A stretch of DNA of 58,720 bases from assembly GCA_964611515.1 (NCBI GenBank), contig CAZTAH010000001.1, forward strand, positions 1 to 58,720, in the 5' to 3' direction. The stretch comes from an uncultured Candidatus Saccharibacteria bacterium (GTDB taxonomy: Bacteria; Patescibacteriota; Minisyncoccia; Phycocordibacterales; UBA9973). Positions within the stretch are counted from its first letter, which is position 1; the number at the start of each line of letters is the position of its first letter. Below are positions 10,963 to 58,720 of the stretch, in pieces. Both the position numbers and the translations under genes were made by a program. Below the pieces are notes generated by a model. The model was not told where the DNA came from. It made no database searches and saw only the letters and a list, made by a program, of their open reading frames with translations.

Positions 10963-11152
10963 CAAAAGCGCGAATTCAAAAAGACTGGACTGCTCCAGTC
11001 TTTTTCGCTTTTGTGAAGACGGAAGCATGTTTTTCTAGCAAGAAAAACAGCTGAGTCCGGGGCTGGAAAATTTGCGAGCCCACCACTACCCACTTCTAAA
11101 AATAAAGAGAAGTGGGTGTGCGGACAGGCGACGGCGAGCAAATTATTGTGGC
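10963..11152 (+). repeat. tRNA-trailer structured element, Glu-linked member
   Basis: Starts AAAGCG directly after tRNA...ACA. Shares CGCTTTTGTGA(A/G)G, GTTTTNNT-AGCA-ANNAAAAC, a CCGGGG-loop hairpin and AAATT..AATTATTGTGGCC with the Arg and Leu arrays. Confidence 0.75.
10978..11005 (+). terminator. hairpin/terminator in tRNA-Glu trailer
   Basis: AAAAAGACTGGA ctgc TCCAGTCTTTTT (12-bp stem plus T run). Confidence 0.7.
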
Positions 11153-11205
11153 CCACACCACTCCTGCATGCGAAGCATTCCTTTTTAATAATCGTAAAAT
11201 AAAAA
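11153..11205 (+). repeat. direct repeat copy A (orphan tRNA-3'-like CCACACCACTCCTGCA + TGCGAAGCATTCC..)
   Basis: Near-identical to 11625-11676, 472 bp away. Confidence 0.85.
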
Positions 11206-11274: not shown

Positions 11275-11410
11275 CCCCACAAACCCATATTTCCATTGCT
11301 TTTTGTGGTTAGATTAAGTTTCTTCAGAATAAAACTGAGGAATTGTCTTTTAGTTAAATAAATATTTACTAATAATAAAAAAGCTAAAGGATGGAAATAT
11401 AGGTGTGGGG
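11275..11410 (+). repeat. MITE-like ~135-bp element, copy 1
   Basis: Termini CCCCACAAACCCATATTTCCAT.. and ..ATGGAAATATAGGTGTGGGG are imperfect inverted repeats. Homologous to 29719, 42804, 57891 and 58253. Confidence 0.8.
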
Positions 11411-11624
11411 ATTTAGCATAATTTCGCCAGCCCGCCTGCTAATGCTTAGCATTTCGGGCAGGCAGGCGAAATAGCCGAGCCGGGTGAGAAAGCGAACACT
11501 TGGAGCTTTTGCAAGACCTTGAGCGTTTTGTAATCAAAATGCGAAAGGTGTACAGATCCTGAAAGGATCGCGAGTACTTACATATTTTGCGAATACTTGG
11601 AGCAAAATATTTAGTAACTTGTGA

Positions 11625-11676
11625 CCACACCACTCCTGCATGCGAAGCATTCCTCTTAACTAATCGTAAAATAAAA
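11625..11676 (+). repeat. direct repeat copy B
   Basis: GTGACC|ACACCACTCCTGCA|TGCGAAGCATTCC.., matching 11153-11205. Confidence 0.85.
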
Positions 11677-27900: not shown

Positions 27901-27906
27901 CAGAAC

Positions 27907-27940
27907 CACAGGACCGTCCTAGACACAGGACGGTCCTGTG
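27907..27940 (+). other. perfect 14-bp GC-rich hairpin just after tRNA-Phe
   Basis: CACAGGACCGTCCT agacac AGGACGGTCCTGTG. The AGGACCGTCCTAGAC module recurs at 57829-57846. Confidence 0.7.
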
Positions 27941-27988
27941 TAATATCTCTACGCCTAATAGAGATATTGGTTTGTGGGGGGGGCCTGT

Positions 27989-28034
27989 CCCCACATCAAT
28001 ATCTCCACACCTAATGGAGATATTGGTAGTGGGG
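27989..28034. repeat. 46-bp mini-palindrome with MITE-type termini
   Basis: CCCCACATCAATATCTCCA cacctaa TGGAGATATTGGTAGTGGGG. A half-copy lies at 27942-27979. Confidence 0.75.
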
Positions 28035-28069
28035 ATAACCAAGTGTCCGGCCGGACCTCTTGTTACACC
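28033..28069. repeat. REP-like palindrome, degenerate copy a
   Basis: GGATAACCAAGTGTCCGGCCGGACCTCTTGTTACACC. Confidence 0.6.
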
Positions 28070-28093
28070 AAGAGACTTTCTGTTATTATTTCA

Positions 28094-28424
28094 TAAGGGT
28101 TATTTTTGATTTTTAGACTTAAGGTCTCCCGAGTCTTTTTTCCATTTTTACCCTTATATAGTAATGCTTATTCTATACTCAGCTTACACGATCGTACGTT
28201 TTGAGTATAAATAGGCCTTTATAAAATAAGGGTTATTTTTGATTTTTAGACTTAAAGTCTCCCGAGTCTTTTTTCCATTTTTACCCTTATATAGTAATGC
28301 TTATTCTATACTCAGCTTACACGATCGTACGTTTTGAGTATAAATAGGCCTTTATAAAATAAGGGTTATTTTTGATTTTTAGACTTAAAGTCTCCCGAGT
28401 CTTTTTTCCATTTTTACCCTTATA
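28094..28424. repeat. 132/133-bp tandem repeat, ~2.5 copies
   Basis: Unit starts at 28094, 28226 and 28359. One poly-T indel and one A/G difference. Two hairpins per unit. Confidence 0.9.
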
Positions 28425-28445
28425 ACATAAACCTAGAAATTAACA

Positions 28446-28483
28446 GGTGTAACAAGACGGACGGCCGTCCGTCTTGTTACACC
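28446..28483. repeat. REP-like palindrome, perfect 38-bp copy b
   Basis: GGTGTAACAAGACGGACGGCCGTCCGTCTTGTTACACC. Confidence 0.9.
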
Positions 28484-28485
28484 TA

Positions 28486-28946
28486 GCGAAACAGAGCAAA
28501 TAAATTTGCTATATTTTAACTCACGCTTTTGGTCACAAATAATTCCTCTGTCGTCACATCGGAATTTTCGCGACCCCGGCTCGCGGTTTTGTTTGCTAAC
28601 AAAACATCGCTCCGCCTCACAAAAGCGAAACAGAGCAAATAAATTTGCTATATTTTAACTCACGCTTTTGGTCACAAATAATTCCTCTGTCGTCACATCG
28701 GAATTTTCGCGACCCCGGCTCGCGGTTTTGTTTGCTAACAAAACATCGCTCCGCCTCACAAAAGCGAAATATAGCAAATAAATTTGCTATATTTTAACTC
28801 ACGCTTTTGGTCACAAATAATTCCTCTGTCGTCACATCGGAATTTTCGCGACCCCGGCTCGCGGTTTTGTTTGCTAACAAAACATCGCTCCGCCTCACAA
28901 AAGCGAAATATAGCAAATAAATTTGCTATATTTTAACTCACGCTTT
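28486..28946 (-). repeat. 139-bp tandem array (3.3 copies), Arg-linked tRNA-trailer family
   Basis: Unit starts at 28486, 28625, 28764 and 28903. The minus strand is in the sense of tRNA-Arg. Confidence 0.9.
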
Positions 28947-28965
28947 TGTGCCCTCGGCAGGAATC
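28947..28965 (-). repeat. displaced exact copy of tRNA-Arg 3' end (19 nt)
   Basis: Minus sense GATTCCTGCCGAGGGCACA equals the end of the gene at 29167-29185. Flanked by GTGACC and AAAGCG. Confidence 0.9.
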
Positions 28966-29096
28966 GGTCACTCTCGTGGATATTTTGTTTCTGGTTCGAC
29001 AAGCTCACCATCACAAAATATCTCACTCCATCGGCCCCCACTCGGTCGTTTCCTTTTTCCTAATCTTAATTAGGAAAAAGGGCTTTGCGCGACCTC

Positions 29097-29119
29097 GGTT
29101 CGATTCCCGCGAATTGCAC
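29097..29119 (+). other. orphan tRNA T-loop/3'-end-like fragment
   Basis: GGTTCGATTCCCGCGAATTGCAC. No matching 5' half. Confidence 0.4.
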
Positions 29120-29168
29120 TAAAATTCTAAATCCCAAGAACTCCGTTCTTGGTCTTAAGTATTTTATG

Positions 29169-29240
29169 TGCCCTCGGCAGGAATCGAACCCACATCTATT
29201 CCTTAGGACGGAACTGTTCTATCCATTGAACTACGAGGGC
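29169..29240 (-). tRNA. tRNA-Arg(CCT)
   Basis: Minus sense GCCCTCG..CGAGGGC-A. Anticodon arm GTTCC-GTCCTAA-GGAAT. T arm GTGGG-TTCGATT-CCTGC. Confidence 0.9.
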
Positions 29241-29711: not shown

Positions 29712-29718
29712 AAATAAT

Positions 29719-29853
29719 CCCCACACCTATATTTCCATCCTTTAGCTTTTTTGTTATTAGTAAATATTTATTTAATTAAAAAAAACCTCTCAGTTTTGCT
29801 CTGAAGATTTTTCAACTAACCACAAAAAGCAATGGAAATATTGGTTTGTGGGG
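29719..29853 (-). repeat. MITE-like element, copy 2 (inverted)
   Basis: Runs from CCCCACACCTATATTTCCAT.. to ..ATGGAAATATTGGTTTGTGGGG. Confidence 0.8.
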
Positions 29854-30032
29854 GTGCGGGTAGCGAGACCGCGAGTACGCTTATCGATCCTTACAGGATC
29901 TGTACACTCTTCGTATTATTTGGAATTAAAAATTCCAAATAATATACTCAGAGTCTTCGATTCTCGCACGCAAGCAAAACTATTTGCTTGCTTACCCGCA
30001 TTAAAAAGCTCCACTGGAGATTTTTAATTTAG
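29854..30032 (-). repeat. Gly-linked trailer unit bounded by tRNA-Gly 3'-end copy
   Basis: Minus sense holds a weak hairpin, then TGCGGGTA-[hairpin]-GCGAGAATCG (antisense to the tRNA 3' end). After more hairpins it ends TCTCGCTACCCGCAC (29854-29868), a 15-nt direct copy of the tRNA end. Confidence 0.75.
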
Positions 30033-42798: not shown

Positions 42799-42803
42799 CC
42801 GAT

Positions 42804-42938
42804 CCCCACAAACCCATATTTCCATTGCTTTTTGTGGCTAGCTAAAATCTCTTCAGAACAAGAGCTGAAGATCTTTTTTTAATTAAACAAAACTTTCTAA
42901 TAATAAAAAAGCTAGGGGATAGAAATATAGGTGTGGGG
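42804..42938 (+). repeat. MITE-like element, copy 3
   Basis: Runs from CCCCACAAACCCATATTTCCAT.. to ..ATAGAAATATAGGTGTGGGG. Confidence 0.8.
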
Positions 42939-43040
42939 CTTGTCCCGAGTAGCTTTAGCGAAGTGGGAATTTATCTCACAAGCTCATGTTTCCTTCAGTG
43001 CTCCAAGTACTTGTTGCTTTACTTAGAGTATTAGCTAATT

Positions 43041-43400: not shown

Positions 43401-43482
43401 GCCGGAGTGGCGGAATTGGTATACGCGCGCGACTCAAAATCGCGTCTCGCAAGAGTTGTGGGTTCAAGTCCCACCTCCGGCA
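43401..43482 (+). tRNA. tRNA-Leu(CAA)
   Basis: Acceptor GCCGGAG/CTCCGGC. Anticodon arm CGCGA-CTCAAAA-TCGCG. Long variable arm. T arm GTGGG-TTCAAGT-CCCAC. Confidence 0.9.
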
Positions 43483-44250
43483 CAAAGCGAAGCTTTGGGC
43501 AAAAACTAAGTGATGGGGTTATCACTTGGTTTTTAGGTGGTGGGACTTGAAAGCCGGAGCGCGACGGCGCGAGGCGGGGTCGCGGAAATTTTTAGTAAAA
43601 AATTATCTGTGACCAAGTCCCACCTCCGGCACAAAGCGAAGCTTTGGGCAAAAACTAAGTGATGGGGTTATCACTTGGTTTTTAGGTGGTGGGACTTGAA
43701 AGCCGGAGCGCGACGGCGCGAGGCGGGGTCGCGGAAATTTTTAGTAAAAAATTATCTGTGACCAAGTCCCACCTCCGGCACAAAGCGAAGCTTTGGGCAA
43801 AAACTAAGTGATGGGGTTATCACTTGGTTTTTAGGTGGTGGGACTTGAAAGCCGGAGCGCGACGGCGCGAGGCGGGGTCGCGGACTTTTTCAGCAGAAAA
43901 AGATCTGTGACCAAGTCCCACCTCCGGCACAAAATGAAGTTTTGGGTAAAAACTAAGTGATGGGGTTATCACTTGGTTTTTAGGTGGTGGGACTTGAAAG
44001 CCGGAGCGCGACGGCGCGAGGCGGGGTCGCGGAAATTTTTAGTAAAAAATTATCTGTGACCAAGTCCCACCTCCGGCACAAAATGAAGTTTTGGGTAAAA
44101 ACTAAGTGATGGGGTTATCACTTGGTTTTTAGGTGGTGGGACTTGAAAGCCGGAGCGCGACGGCGCGAGGCGGGGTCGCGGAAATTTTTAGTAAAAAATT
44201 ATCTGTGACCAAGTCCCACCTCCGGCACAAAATGAAGTTTTGGGTAAAAA
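43465..44250 (+). repeat. 149-bp tandem array (5.3 copies), Leu-linked tRNA-trailer family
   Basis: Unit starts at 43465, 43614, 43763, 43912, 44061 and 44210. Each carries CAAGTCCCACCTCCGGCACA, the last 20 nt of the tRNA-Leu gene region. Confidence 0.95.
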
Positions 44251-46350: not shown

Positions 46351-48411
46351 TTATTCTAAAATTTTACGCAAAACTTCCTCTGGGACCTCCCTTTTGGCTC
46401 TAGGTTTTTGCCAAGAGGCATCTGTTTCTTTCTTAGAATTATTATTAATAATATTAATATCTTCTTTTTCCGCTTTCTTTAGAGAACTACCAGGGGTGCT
46501 ATCTGTCTTTTGGCTATTTGGTAAAATCTTGTCTTTTGAGACGATATCTGGTTCTTTTTTTTCTGTTTCCCTTTCCTTCTTGGGTCCTGATTTCTCTCTG
46601 TCTCTGCTTGGAGCTTTCCCGTAAATAATTCCTGATCTAGCGATACTGTTAAGCAAGTCGCCCCTACTCTCTTCGCTAATCTCTTTAGTCGGCCTATCAT
46701 CTTTATTTTTTTTCTTTGTCCCACTCTTTAGCTCACTCAAAGATATAGCTTCTGTTTGTTTTTTTGCTTTAACTTTTTTTACCTCTTTGATAGTTCCCTT
46801 TTCTTCTTCTTCTTTTATTTTTTCTAATAATTCTTTTAGCCCTAATTTCTCTGGTGTCCTTGGCGAACTACTTGATTCTTTATTATTCTCCGTATACTTA
46901 ACTGTTTTTTCTCTTTCTATTTTTTTCTGACTAGCAGAAGAAGCATTTCTTTTGTCTGGCGTACTTATTTTTCCTTCTCTTGCTTTAGCTAGACAGTCCT
47001 GACAGTAGACAGGGCGACCTTTTTCTGGTTTAAAGGGAACAAAAAATGGCTTATTGCAATTTGTGCACTCTGCCTTATGTTTTTTTTCTTGCTTAGAGAC
47101 CTGCAGGGTATTACTCCATTCATCTATCTCTCTTTCTACATCCTCTCTTCTTTTTGTATAAAGCTCTCTAGAGCACTCTATAATTCTATCCTTAATTCCT
47201 TTAGTAGGGTCTACTTTCATTGGGGGTAAGGTTATAGCAGAAAAAGGACGACTAGTGACTCCGTCTATCATTAATTTTAAGTAGATATGGTAATTTGGTA
47301 AATTAACTAAATCCTGAGCAGTAAATTCTGGACTAAATTCTTTTTCTAGAAAGTCTGCGTCATCAGCTCCTACTCTAAAAATTATCATTGTCCCAACGTT
47401 GCCAAAAACTGCATCTTTCACCTTGTTGTTTTCAGCATTAGTTAATTGAGCGGTATATTGATGAGCTACAATTAAGTTCAGCCTGTATTTTCTTGCTTCT
47501 GATAAAATATCAGCAAAAGAATCAGTGGCAAAGTTTTGAAATTCATCCACATATAAATAAAAATCTCTCCTTCTGTCTTCTGGTATTCTTACTCTTTCCA
47601 TGGCTGCTAATTGTATTTTGGTAATTATCATTCCACCCAAAAGAGCAGAGTTATCCTCCCCTATTCTTCCCTTTGCGACATTAACCAGAAATATCTTTCC
47701 CTCATTCATAATGTCAAAAACATTTATAGTGGACTCAGCTTGGCCTACCACATTTCTGATGATTGAAGAAGATAAAAATTGTCCTACCTTGTTTTGAATT
47801 GGGGCAATTGCTTCATTTCTAAACTGGTCTCTCCATTGCTCATATTCATTGGTCCAAAAAGATTTAACGACTGGGTCCTTTAGATTACTAATAACCATTT
47901 GACGGTAATCTTTGTCTACTAGTAAGCGAGGAATTCCAAGAAGAGTAGAGTCTGGTGTGTCTAATAGGGCCAAGATGGTATTATTTAGAATATATTCCAT
48001 TCTAGCGCTCCAAGCATTAGCCCATATCTTAGTAAATATACCCATTAAACCAGAAGCAACTAAATGCTTGTGCTTGGGATCATTTATCTGTATTACATTA
48101 AATCCTATATGATGATCCCTGTCTGCTGGATTAAAATAAACAACATCTTTTGCCCTTTCTTCTGGGATAAAATTCAATATCTCTTCTACTAATTCTCCAT
48201 GTGGATCAACAACACAAACTCCTTCTCCGTTTTTTATATTTTGAATTATTAAATTAGACAATAGAACAGATTTACCTGTTCCTGATTTTCCCAATACATA
48301 CATATGCTGACGACGGTCTTTTCTCTTTATTCCAAAAACTGTATTAGAGTTACGAAAATCTGTTTTCGCAAAATAAGTGACTTCTTTATTTATAGGAATT
48401 TCATTATCCAT
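46351..48411 (-). CDS. TraD/VirD4-like (T4SS coupling protein family) P-loop ATPase with CxxC..CxxC zinc ribbon and long K/E/S-rich tail
   Basis: Walker A GKSGTGKS, Walker B YLYVDEFQ, ARKYRLNLIVAHQY. Zinc ribbon CTNCNKPFFVPFKPEKGRPVYCQDC. Confidence 0.7.
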   Translation of the reverse strand: MDNEIPINKEVTYFAKTDFRNSNTVFGIKRKDRRQHMYVLGKSGTGKSVLLSNLIIQNIKNGEGVCVVDPHGELVEEILNFIPEERAKDVVYFNPADRDHHIGFNVIQINDPKHKHLVASGLMGIFTKIWANAWSARMEYILNNTILALLDTPDSTLLGIPRLLVDKDYRQMVISNLKDPVVKSFWTNEYEQWRDQFRNEAIAPIQNKVGQFLSSSIIRNVVGQAESTINVFDIMNEGKIFLVNVAKGRIGEDNSALLGGMIITKIQLAAMERVRIPEDRRRDFYLYVDEFQNFATDSFADILSEARKYRLNLIVAHQYTAQLTNAENNKVKDAVFGNVGTMIIFRVGADDADFLEKEFSPEFTAQDLVNLPNYHIYLKLMIDGVTSRPFSAITLPPMKVDPTKGIKDRIIECSRELYTKRREDVEREIDEWSNTLQVSKQEKKHKAECTNCNKPFFVPFKPEKGRPVYCQDCLAKAREGKISTPDKRNASSASQKKIEREKTVKYTENNKESSSSPRTPEKLGLKELLEKIKEEEEKGTIKEVKKVKAKKQTEAISLSELKSGTKKKNKDDRPTKEISEESRGDLLNSIARSGIIYGKAPSRDREKSGPKKERETEKKEPDIVSKDKILPNSQKTDSTPGSSLKKAEKEDINIINNNSKKETDASWQKPRAKREVPEEVLRKILE

Positions 48412-48715: not shown

Positions 48716-48779
48716 TAAAGAGAGTCAGGAGAAAACCGAAAATCCTAAAAAGAGTAGGTGCTATTTAAAAAAACAAGAG

Positions 48780-49013: not shown

Positions 49014-49070
49014 CATTAGGAGAAAGCCGAAAATCCTTAAAAGAGTAGGCAAAATTAAAAATTTAAAAAA

Positions 49071-57890: not shown

Positions 57891-58024
57891 CCCTAACACC
57901 AATGTTTTCATTCTAATGCTTTTTTGTTATTAGAAAGTTTAATTTAATTAAAAGACAATCTCTCACTCTTGTTCTGAAGAGATTTTAGTTGAATACAAAA
58001 AGCAATGGAAATATTGGTGTGGGG
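57891..58024 (-). repeat. MITE-like element, copy 4 (inverted, left terminus degenerate)
   Basis: Preceded by a GC palindrome at 57864-57890. The 57864-58024 block is repeated at 58226-58385. Confidence 0.75.
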
Positions 58025-58059
58025 GTAACCAAGTGGACGGCCGTCCGTTTGGTTACCCC
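58021..58059. repeat. REP-like palindrome copy e
   Basis: GGGGGTAACCAAGTGGACGGCCGTCCGTTTGGTTACCCC. Confidence 0.85.
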
Positions 58060-58100
58060 TTAGAACTTTTTTTGATTTTTATAGTTTTAGGTATTTGTTT

Positions 58101-58130
58101 GAGCCGCTTCCCAGACTTGAACTGGGGACC
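58101..58130 (-). pseudogene. tRNA-like 3' half (intact T arm + acceptor 3' strand) of a tRNA not present in the window
   Basis: Minus sense GGTC-CCCAG-TTCAAGT-CTGGG-AAGCGGC-TCA. No matching 5' acceptor strand nearby. Confidence 0.5.
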
Positions 58131-58252
58131 TTCGCTTTAGTTATGCGCCTGTTCCCACTTCGCCAAGGCTACGCGGGACAAGCTCGCACACCCACTTTTC
58201 TCAATTCTTAGAGGTGGGTTTCGTGGGGGCCTGCCTGCGCAGGCGGGCCTGT

Positions 58253-58385
58253 CCCCACACCAATGTTTTCATTCTTTTGCTTTTTTGTTATTAGAAAGTT
58301 TAATTTAATTAAAAAATAATCTCTCACTCTTGCTCTGAAGAGATTTTAGTTGAATACAAAAAGCTATGGAAATATTGGTGTGGGG
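58253..58385 (-). repeat. MITE-like element, copy 5 (inverted)
   Basis: Runs from CCCCACACCAATGTTTTCAT.. to ..ATGGAAATATTGGTGTGGGG. Confidence 0.8.
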
Positions 58386-58720
58386 ATTGACATAGCCTAG
58401 ATTGATTACTTTTCGTGAGCCGCTTCCCAGACTTAAGCTAGGATTCTTTGCTTTAGTTATGCGCCTGTCCGCACACCTACTTTTCTTGATTCTTAAAAGT
58501 GGGTGTGGGGATTGACATAACCTAGATAAGTTACAATACTTGAGCCGCTTCCCAGACTTAAGCTAGGATTCTTTGCTTTAGTTATGCGCCTGTCCGCACA
58601 CCTACTTTTCTTGATTCTTAAAAGTGGGTGTGGGGATTGACATAGCCTAGATTGATTACTTTTCGTGAGCCGCTTCCCAGACTTAAGCTAGGATTCTTTG
58701 CTTTAGTTATGCTTTGACAT
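58382..58720 (-). repeat. 125-bp tandem array (at least 2.7 copies) running into the contig end
   Basis: Unit starts at 58382, 58507 and 58632. Each unit carries CTTAAGTCTGGGAAGCGGCTCA (minus sense) and the hairpin CACACCCACTTTT..AAAAGTAGGTGTG. Confidence 0.9.

Follow-up and report, generated by a model that had tools for sequence, protein, structure and literature searches.

We analysed two tandem repeat arrays, one adjoining a tRNA-Arg and one a tRNA-Leu gene, in a 58,720-nucleotide (nt) stretch of contig CAZTAH010000001.1 from an uncultured Candidatus Saccharibacteria bacterium (the window). The units of both arrays belong to a conserved RNA of about 86 nt that constitutes a new family, which we term the GUGAC motif. 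Its copies have a closing helix built from the 3' end of the host gene and a junction positioned by reference to a guide segment; they are inserted serially and amplified in tandem, and no protein is linked to them. We suggest, with somewhat more confidence than doubt, that the Arg and Leu arrays are small structured-RNA insertion elements, devoid of open reading frames (ORFs), that reside on the 3' ends of tRNA, transfer-messenger RNA (tmRNA) and occasionally topA genes, join their target at a guide-set junction and are later amplified in tandem.

The first array lies next to tRNA-Arg(CCT) (29168..29240, minus strand; ARAGORN; Rfam tRNA model, 62 bits), in which T54, T55 and C56 fall within GGGTTCGATTCC. 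TRF agrees with the initial annotation in calling a 139-bp repeat in 3.3 copies (28485-28948, 99% matches), the array proper occupying 28485..28946 (minus strand). Each unit consists of a P1 hairpin (AAAAGCG, an inner hairpin and CGCUUUUGUG) and a scaffold, AGGCGGAGCG-P2-CGCGAGCCGGGGUCGCG-P4-UAUUUGUGAC, which represents the long-P2 form of the motif. The scaffolds of units 1, 2 and 3 (28810..28895, 28671-28756 and 28532-28617, respectively, minus strand) each score 97.4 bits in cmsearch with our covariance model R1. In the closing helix, CACAAAAGCG, which comprises the tRNA end and the trailer, pairs with CGCUUUUGUG; the guide of unit 1, X, maps to 28896-28905 (minus strand), and folding of the unit gave a predicted structure with z = -6.1. 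The array is closed by a perfect GC-rich hairpin, GGUGUAACAAGACGGACGGCCGUCCGUCUUGUUACACC (28445..28484, minus strand), whose sequence looks like a terminator.

The GUGAC RNA is built of helices P2 and P4 and a short P3, whose loop forms a GSC:GSC pseudoknot with the 5' junction strand; a bulged A in P4 and the 3' GUGAC are invariant. Its consensus runs from AGSCGGAGCG in junction J1/2 through P2, a GSCGGGG loop and P4 with the bulged A to a 3' YGUGAC. We assessed this fold in an alignment of 24 long-P2 copies (A2), from which R1 was also built; R1 is thus limited to long-P2 copies, the short-P2 units having been misaligned by MAFFT. In A2, 23 pairs changed on both sides and 86% of cells are paired, and none of 500 shuffles was as good. 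The pseudoknot pair is GC in 15 copies, CG in seven and UG in two, and is unpaired in none. Mutual information across 131 distinct copies recovered P2, P4 and the pseudoknot. It also yielded G10:C26, a helix closing P2 that is likewise the minimum-free-energy choice and with which subtype-II copies agree, and it added U38:A74, a pair that places the GUGAC tail in the conserved core. The unpaired nucleotides of the core are strongly conserved in both analyses. Tandem G.A pairs are frequent in P2 and P4 and G.U pairs occur, indicating that the structure belongs to this strand as RNA. A candidate tail helix, GGAGC:GUGAC, was set aside, as it is almost invariant and hence beyond the reach of covariation.

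Comparison with known RNAs returned no relative. A cmscan of both arrays against Rfam 15, at gathering thresholds and at E values up to 10, gave only tRNA and noise; specifically, there was no Rfam match to the self-cleaving hammerhead, hepatitis delta virus (HDV)-like/theta, twister, twister-sister, pistol, hatchet, hairpin or glmS classes. Compared by eye, the hammerhead, HDV-like, twister and hairpin layouts misfit in helix and strand order. An analogy to primer-binding sites or T-boxes was dismissed because a CCA complement is absent. Our literature searches did not find a description of the motif.

The second array (149 nt, 5.3 copies; 43465..44250, plus strand; TRF and sequence) overlaps the 3' end of the intact tRNA-Leu(CAA) (43401..43483, plus strand; ARAGORN) and carries the same RNA family as the Arg units in a short-P2 form. 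Its first base, 43465, is C56 of tRNA-Leu, so that the Leu units do join at the T-loop position proposed before. In each unit, the 3' 20 nt of tRNA-Leu, which a k-mer scan detected in every unit, are followed by two hairpins, the guide GGUGGUGGGACUUGAA and a scaffold ending in CUGUGAC; the units hold AGCCGGAGCG, CGCGAGGCGGGGUCGCG, a hairpin and UAUCUGUGAC. Although R1 was built without any Leu unit, it matched all five scaffolds (43552-43613, 43701-43762, 43850-43911, 43999-44060 and 44148-44209, plus strand) at 46-47 bits and an E value of 2e-11. The likeness of Arg and Leu units, asserted in the initial annotation from shared sequence blocks, is therefore homology and not chance. In addition, a 17-nt core, CGCGAGSCGGGGTCGCG, occurs three times in the Arg and five times in the Leu array, versus zero times in 100 shuffles. 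Adjacent Leu units are the most alike, and in variant units P4 and the first hairpin show compensatory changes. In the computed fold of the tRNA-Leu precursor, X pairs with the real T arm (z = -9.2). We rejected a reading of the Leu unit as a tRNA-like pseudo-gene, with GCCGGAG in J1/2 as the tRNA-Leu acceptor strand, because this block is kept in units at other tRNAs and the two pairings would cross.

Short-P2 copies of the Leu type often close P1 as a local hairpin with the conserved loop GCGAA-N5-6-GGAGC, which in the window reads AAGCGAAGCUUUGGGC (43484-43500). Such copies were seen at loci L002, L043, L048, L172, L177, L183, L192, L194, L226, L240 and L243 of our collection, and some of them adjoin no tRNA; they may represent a standalone or ancestral form of the GUGAC RNA.

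The segment that sets each copy apart is X, the 16 nt directly 5' of the scaffold, which is the reverse complement of the 3' part of the upstream gene; the host gene thereby contributes its own 3' end to the closing helix P1, which usually encloses a terminator-like hairpin. The reverse complement of X matches the copy's own upstream sequence over at least 8 nt in 79 of 123 copies, over at least 11 nt in 45 and over all 16 nt in 14; controls gave three to five, zero and zero, respectively. X is found in two registers. In the first (Leu type), it pairs with T54-N65 and further; in the second, seen in the Arg units (CACAAAAGCG/CGCUUUUGUG), it pairs with N70-A73 and the trailer, around a terminator-like hairpin. 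In "full" forms, pairing extends over the entire length from T54 to the trailer; the partner is an inverse copy consisting of anti-trailer, anti-acceptor, a conserved side hairpin and anti-T segments, and the same tRNA-binding module precedes a different scaffold in a further family, the Gly type (see below). The earlier notion of swappable tRNA-specific cassettes agrees with these observations, as each copy is target-specific.

The position of the junction follows from the guide. The upstream gene resumes behind GUGAC with nucleotide 3 of its X-paired segment (offset +2) in 37 of 41 scorable copies, compared to an expectation of 6.4 with permuted flanks. For the GUGAC family, the T-loop register thus places the junction at U55|C56 and the acceptor register at N71|N72, while other families have their own offsets: 4 in a 203-nt element of the window, and 6 in the Gly type, both here and at L227. 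The sixth base of "GUGACC" tracks tRNA position 72, being G in the tRNA-Lys-linked L026 and L087 and apparently in L062, where G is the last base of the acceptor 3' strand; GUGAC is therefore the end of the scaffold. Consistent with the initial proposal of a recombination junction as opposed to slippage, this is a real, recurrent insertion boundary that obeys the same rule at many tRNAs, at tmRNA and at topA elsewhere. In about a dozen T-loop cases, the gene restart is preserved in full; many other restarts have decayed or are interrupted, and X remains perfectly complementary to the real gene even where the downstream copy has decayed. The duplicated segment measures from 3 to about 70 nt.

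Displaced tRNA pieces are often broken right after CGAU (T-loop positions 56-59) by a small hairpin insert, as at L127, L137, L131, L179, L146 and L219 (after GUGAC) and in the window at 29869-29890. The sequence AGCGUACUCGCGG is common to several of these inserts. It also forms the 3' terminus of the Gly-type scaffold and may be a module shared between the families.

Scans for the exact 17-nt core, with one genome per species, gave about 27 loci with the whole ~86-nt motif in metagenome-assembled genomes (MAGs) of Patescibacteria, from Saccharibacteria, Paceibacteria, Taylor-, Kaiser-, Adler- and Nomurabacteria, in addition to many chance matches in high-GC genomes. A metagenome scan contributed 120 more loci, whereas a viral collection returned only chance matches on high-GC contigs. 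R1 found 139 copies in 100 sources, and our sample of about 200 loci is drawn from many more. Upstream sequence was sufficient for an assessment of 123 copies; in 85 of these, the end of a co-oriented tRNA or tmRNA gene lies at most 130 nt upstream (median 52 nt), representing 17 tRNA identities and seven tmRNAs, and two copies lie at the end of topA (L018 and L118). Altogether, we count about 136 copies in Patescibacteria genomes and metagenomes, at least 69% of which lie this close to a tRNA or tmRNA gene. The motif is co-oriented with the gene and stands just behind a terminator-like hairpin. Arrays also occur elsewhere, with three copies at 137-nt spacing at L220 and multiple copies at L212, L190 and L188.

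In the topA copies, the restart duplicates some 70 nt of the coding sequence, as far as a stop codon. At L018 (3640-3925) and L118 (6520-6830), a second, open copy of the final ~23-35 codons comes after the motif and has diverged mostly at synonymous sites; a hand count for L118 gave nine synonymous versus one non-synonymous difference in 23 codons. A zinc-ribbon codon specifies Ala upstream and Pro in the displaced copy, identically at both loci. The pattern hints that both topA C-termini are kept by selection.

Back at the Arg locus, a separate element of about 203 nt ("type 2"; 28967..29167, minus strand) lies between the tRNA-Arg and its old trailer. It has an inner hairpin, a distinct scaffold and a GAGUGAC 3' end, and its guide-like GGGAAUCGAACC (29097-29108) is an antisense 11-mer complementary to GGUUCGAUUCC of the tRNA-Arg T arm. 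R1 does not recognize it (8 bits, E value 2), and blastn gave zero matches between it and the 139-bp units. Directly downstream is the displaced tRNA-Arg 3' end, CGATTCCTGCCGAGGGCACA (28947..28966, minus strand; k-mer scan), an exact copy from C56 to A73 plus CA. The second tRNA 3' end of the initial annotation is thus real, and its distance from the intact tRNA, given there as 203 bp, measures about 200 nt; its length is 20 nt and not 19, since the last C of "GTGACC" is also T-loop C56, leaving the earlier junction ambiguous by one base. Two further details have to be revised. The GAGTGAC at this junction had been taken as the end of a 139-bp unit, but it terminates the 203-nt element. The 139-bp units attach on the 3' side of the displaced piece, its terminal CACA also opening helix P1 of the first unit; internal Arg units therefore never carried a tRNA piece, and did not lose one by deletion.

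A related locus, L090 (Paceibacterota, JAGOPR010000005.1), shows the site before this event. It is syntenic with the window, containing a glutaredoxin-like gene (57% protein identity), tRNA-Arg(CCT), one motif copy and a tRNA-Phe on the opposite strand, and it lacks the 203-nt element, the displaced piece and the array. This uninterrupted tRNA-Arg with a single motif copy provides the junction polymorphism that had been sought in relatives. The intact tRNA-Arg 3' end and motif of L090 align colinearly with the displaced piece and unit 1 of the window; therefore, in the window lineage, U55|C56 received the 203-nt element along with a second tRNA 3' end, and amplification brought the old motif to 3.3 copies.

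Turnover of this kind recurs at other tRNA genes. A diverged GUGAC motif copy directly follows tRNA-Glu(CTC) in the window (10964..11152, plus strand; cmsearch, 15.6-25.2 bits, and sequence), where L090 has a Gly-type element. The Glu-linked copy has the P1 strands UCACAAAAGCG/CGCUUUUGUGA, a GAC:GUC pseudoknot that adds an A:U version of the pseudoknot pair, a 51-nt insert in the P4 loop and a GUGGC tail; together with the Arg units (97 bits) and the Leu units, it shows the family's features at three tRNAs of the window. The third family ("type 3", Gly type) follows tRNA-Gly(CCC) (29854..30031, minus strand; k-mer scan), with its homolog being the element after tRNA-Glu in L090. It consists of an anti-acceptor GCGGGUA, a side hairpin, anti-T GCGAGAAUCGAAG, a scaffold with GUACAGAUCCUGUAAGGAUCG and a 15-nt displaced tRNA-Gly 3' end (29854-29868) that had escaped the initial annotation. 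In the k-mer scan, the Arg, Leu and Gly inserts each contain an antisense match to the T loop. At L227, the order is tRNA-Arg, a Gly-type element, displaced piece b1, a GUGAC motif ("type 1") and displaced piece b2, and at L062 two different motif copies stand in series. In stacks of several families, the most recent arrival always adjoins the intact tRNA, and behind every element comes a displaced tRNA piece of its own.

No protein that could account for the junctions accompanies the elements. The genes around the arrays encode housekeeping proteins (UDG, MiaA, YchF, LeuRS, TsaD, MurJ, TGT, MreBC, Ddl and others) and a TrwB/VirD4-like ATPase; as the initial annotation had stated for integrases in the window, no recombinase was found near the arrays. 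When 834 ORFs within 3 kb of a motif at 132 loci were clustered, no recurrent recombinase family emerged, only housekeeping families such as SmpB beside tmRNA. The assignment to a T-loop class of tRNA-targeting integrases is therefore not borne out: the inserts measure 130-220 nt and lack an ORF, no recombinase recurs in the 132 loci, the viral collection gave chance matches only, and the junction is fixed relative to the RNA guide helix, with the same RNA also joining at 71|72 when its guide pairs there. Other known classes fit no better. For IS110/IS1111 bridge or seek RNAs, there is no adjacent ORF, and the alignment has only one target-specific segment, X; TnpB/IscB omega-RNAs or bridge RNAs likewise lack an adjacent ORF here, and X is an inverted and not a direct copy of neighbouring sequence. 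CRISPR and TIGR-type guide arrays were rejected as the 139-149-nt units are near-identical throughout and have no variable spacer, and miniature inverted-repeat transposable elements (MITEs) or insertion sequence-derived repeats as the units lack terminal inverted repeats (TIRs) and duplicate 3 to ~70 nt; a TIR-bearing element of the window is distinct (see below).

We envisage that the elements spread by inserting copies, with X picking the target site and the scaffold being joined to it through its 3' end at a constant distance from the guide helix. The unit boundaries, i.e. the first base after the offset and GUGAC, would then be defined by the folded RNA and not by a protein attachment site. 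Joining might proceed by ribozyme-type cleavage and ligation followed by copying back into DNA, or it might be carried out by an RNA-guided enzyme encoded elsewhere in the genome. Because direct repeats of the tRNA piece flank the element, unequal recombination or slippage could subsequently amplify the arrays. All function ascribed to the GUGAC elements is inferred from their sequences. In a more specific version that we regard as speculative and on balance unlikely, the scaffold would be a new small ribozyme: X would dock the upstream tRNA, tmRNA or mRNA 3' end, GUGAC would attack 2 nt from the helix end, and a unit-length RNA, from the offset base to GUGAC, would be released or circularised, copied into DNA and recombined at the tRNA gene. 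Rolling-circle reverse transcription is one possible way of copying the released RNA back, and would also explain head-to-tail arrays.

Elements of this scheme have counterparts in known systems. The R2 retrotransposon reportedly carries a 5' ribozyme whose P1 is formed with the upstream 28S rRNA target sequence. It resembles the present elements in being site-specific, co-transcribed with a host RNA gene and in using host-gene sequence for a ribozyme helix; it differs in encoding its own reverse transcriptase and endonuclease and in having an HDV-like ribozyme, neither of which is present here. The IS110 bridge RNA is said to be a guide-bearing mobile RNA. As in IS110 and in the pairing of group I/II introns through internal guide or exon-binding sequences, a target-complementary RNA with programmable specificity spans or abuts the presumed reaction site; in contrast to both, our elements have no intron core, no adjacent DEDD recombinase and one guide instead of two loops, and the host gene is uninterrupted. 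We know of no tRNA 3'-end link and no guide arm in retrozymes or satellite-type ribozyme repeats. As described (PMC4918200, PMC7229834), these are ORF-less head-to-tail units of ~130-150 nt with structured RNA, whose ends may be RNA-defined, and are as such similar to the arrays, but they are eukaryotic and hammerhead-based.

Several points weigh against a mobile element. The collection scans demanded the exact 17-nt core, such that distant relatives are under-sampled and P3 is fixed, its covariation being inaccessible in this biased sample. The Arg, Leu and Glu copies of the window are very unlike each other, with no sign of recent transposition between loci here. The acceptor-end restart comprises only 3-6 nt (CAC.., CGC..) and could be part of the motif and not a duplication. 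The proposed route does not account mechanically for the duplicated segment usually stopping at the gene end, and at tRNA-Leu the segment continues for another 22 nt. The return from RNA-defined ends to DNA is purely hypothetical. Moreover, two observations fit a host-useful, cis-acting trailer equally well: the tRNA-Arg(CCT) motif is orthologous and structurally conserved in two diverged genomes, and the X:tRNA pairing is kept better than the displaced copy.

Such a trailer RNA is the main rival. According to this explanation, the motif serves the host and is inherited vertically behind tRNA and tmRNA genes, for example as a self-cleaving ribozyme or a processing or termination device that would compare with the theta ribozymes of gut phages. 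What looks like tRNA behind GUGAC would then simply provide the 3' strand of an alternative closing helix, by which the tRNA escapes from X. We consider it a real possibility, though less likely than not. In its favour, the tRNA-Arg(CCT) motif of the window and L090 is retained as an orthologous trailer with compensatory changes, unpaired core nucleotides are strongly conserved, the motif is always co-oriented and just behind a terminator-like hairpin, and X:tRNA pairing is maintained while the displaced copy decays; at L118, the downstream strand still pairs with X via G.U wobbles. The nearest precedent for a structured RNA right after tRNAs appears to be theta (minimal HDV-like) ribozymes beside phage tRNAs, which are likewise described as small structured RNAs co-transcribed immediately 3' of tRNAs (PMC10879173). 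The present RNA departs from them in that it has no HDV-like fold or Rfam match, its closing helix invades the tRNA, the tRNA restarts, and it resides on Patescibacteria chromosomes and not in phages. Against the trailer reading, a structural strand would not need to repeat the whole 20-nt tRNA 3' end or ~70 nt of topA to a stop codon. At orthologous tRNAs, one family has taken the place of another, and serial stacks occur in which every family has its displaced piece; the predicted reaction site (55|56 or 71|72) would destroy the tRNA and not mature it, and a 12-18-nt pairing of X with T arm and acceptor would misfold it. The outcome that was to speak against insertion, ordinary conserved trailers free of junction polymorphism, was thus found in part: the trailer at tRNA-Arg(CCT) is conserved in two genomes, but the junction is polymorphic.

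With an insertion element still the preferred reading, we regard an intron-like ribozyme as rather unlikely. Here, X would pair with the last 2 nt of an upstream "exon" and the first nucleotides of the element or restarted copy, and splicing, or cutting and religation, would remove the element and join the gene body to the displaced piece. The guide indeed spans the junction like an internal guide sequence, with 2 nt on one side and 8-14 nt on the other, the 3' GUGAC is invariant and tied into the core, and the elements are located in essential genes; the displaced topA copy moreover keeps an open frame. However, splicing is not needed, as the upstream copy is intact wherever there is an intact gene upstream and a complete tRNA precedes each of the tRNA-linked copies; displaced tRNA pieces are in many cases cut to 4-9 nt or interrupted, and the Rfam comparison gave no resemblance to group I or II introns. 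The topA pattern comes from two loci and could reflect divergence of donor and recipient or gene conversion.

Classical integration scars are a still weaker candidate, in our view very improbable: a tyrosine or serine integrase would have acted at the T loop or 3' end, and the island would have been mostly deleted, leaving attL/attR and a short remnant. Islands and prophages of this type, as represented in the Islander database (PMC4383910), target 3' parts of tRNA and tmRNA genes and 3' ends of protein genes, regenerate the gene, leave a displaced 3' fragment as a direct repeat, the textbook sign of a tRNA-gene (tDNA) island, and stack serially. All of this is matched here, the direct repeats measuring 20 nt at tRNA-Arg, 20 nt at tRNA-Leu and 15 nt at tRNA-Gly and also occurring in other genomes. 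Yet a classical integrase explains the direct repeats only. The inserts hold neither integrase nor cargo: the spacing of the repeats is below 300 nt except for ~1.2 kb at L105/L230 and ~5 kb at the decayed L005, where a tRNA-Gln-like displaced piece lies 5 kb from tRNA-Gln and a suspected serine-recombinase fragment dissolved when Pfam found nothing recombinase-like in the interval. Otherwise, in about 130 independent copies, all inserts are at most 1.3 kb and mostly 130-220 nt, no integrase was found near them, the supposed remnant is a covarying, pseudoknotted RNA and not decayed DNA, and the junction tracks the RNA guide, with family-specific offsets. Local replication slippage or mis-assembly, with incidental similarity to tRNA, is hardly credible: units that are 97-99% identical, neighbouring Leu units that are most similar and array ends that fall inside units would fit, and copy numbers could be mis-estimated in a MAG-like assembly such as the window, but slippage accounts for copy number only and not for a motif across phyla-level lineages, guide complementarity, the offset rule or stacking, and independent assemblies share the architecture, including other arrays (L220).

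The window contains further repeats and features around these elements. A ~140-nt element occurs in five copies (11275-11413; 29716-29853, minus strand; 42801-42941; 57896-58025, minus strand; and 58252-58387, minus strand) that are 78-89% identical and carry ~20-nt TIRs, CCCCACA(A/C)CC(A/T)ATATTTCCAT ... ATGGAAATAT(A/T)GGTGTGGGG; by its sequence, it looks like a MITE. Copies are often found beside tRNA-tail elements, as immediately behind the displaced tRNA-Gly piece and behind tRNA-Trp. Downstream of the motif copy at tRNA-Glu, a ~50-nt direct repeat starting with CACACCACTCCTGCATGCGAAGCATTCC (11153-11200 and 11625-11675) bounds a composite insert of ~470 nt that ends in CTTGTGAC and contains a Gly-type core, GUACAGAUCCUGAAAGGAUCG, and one MITE-like copy; GGTGTGGG inside this insert complements the start of the ~50-nt repeat, again with an offset of 2. 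A 133-bp array (2.5 copies, 28093-28424, 99% identical) lies between the terminal hairpin of the Arg array and the region downstream of tRNA-Phe; it has no similarity to the GUGAC motif and no homolog among the collected loci. A 125-bp array (2.7 copies, 58377-58712) reaches the window end, with units beginning with GGTGTGGGGATTGACATAGCC; part of its unit recurs at 58100-58158 and, reversed, at 11090-11130 within the insert that the tRNA-Glu-linked copy carries in its P4 loop. Perfect GC-rich palindromes with the pattern GGTGTAACAAG(A/G)CGGACGGCCGTCCG..CTTGTTACACC and hairpins of the GGACCGTCCTAG type are repeated in AT-rich intergenic regions between repeat elements (27901-28090, 28445-28484, 29640-29600 and 58030-58060). 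Two Rfam DUF805b motifs (48726-48760 and 49017-49051; 44.7 and 52 bits) just downstream of tRNA-Ala(TGC) flank a 108-amino-acid ORF with no Pfam match. The TrwB/VirD4-like gene, 2 kb from the Leu array and adjoining a gene for a lamin-tail-domain protein, encodes a 686-residue protein (46351-48411, minus strand) with coupling-protein ATPase domains and a treble-clef zinc finger, and may belong to a conjugation- or competence-related machinery in this reduced genome.

Even on the conservative reading, a cis-acting trailer RNA that clamps the 3' half of a tRNA would be new biology for a major and poorly understood bacterial radiation. If the elements are what we propose, Patescibacteria chromosomes hold many copies of an undescribed RNA that reads the 3' ends of tRNA, tmRNA and topA by base pairing and marks precise, guide-defined insertion junctions with no linked protein gene. 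Its conservation would be of ribozyme grade and the family ready for biochemistry, with a possible programmable joining or insertion activity set by a guide of 10-16 nt, and it would account for the peculiar repeat arrays and pieces of tRNA that clutter these reduced genomes and mislead the annotation of tRNAs and islands. Should the scaffold turn out to be a ribozyme, the family would represent a guide-programmable mobile bacterial RNA free of protein genes, a prokaryotic counterpart of retrozymes combined with features of reverse-splicing introns.

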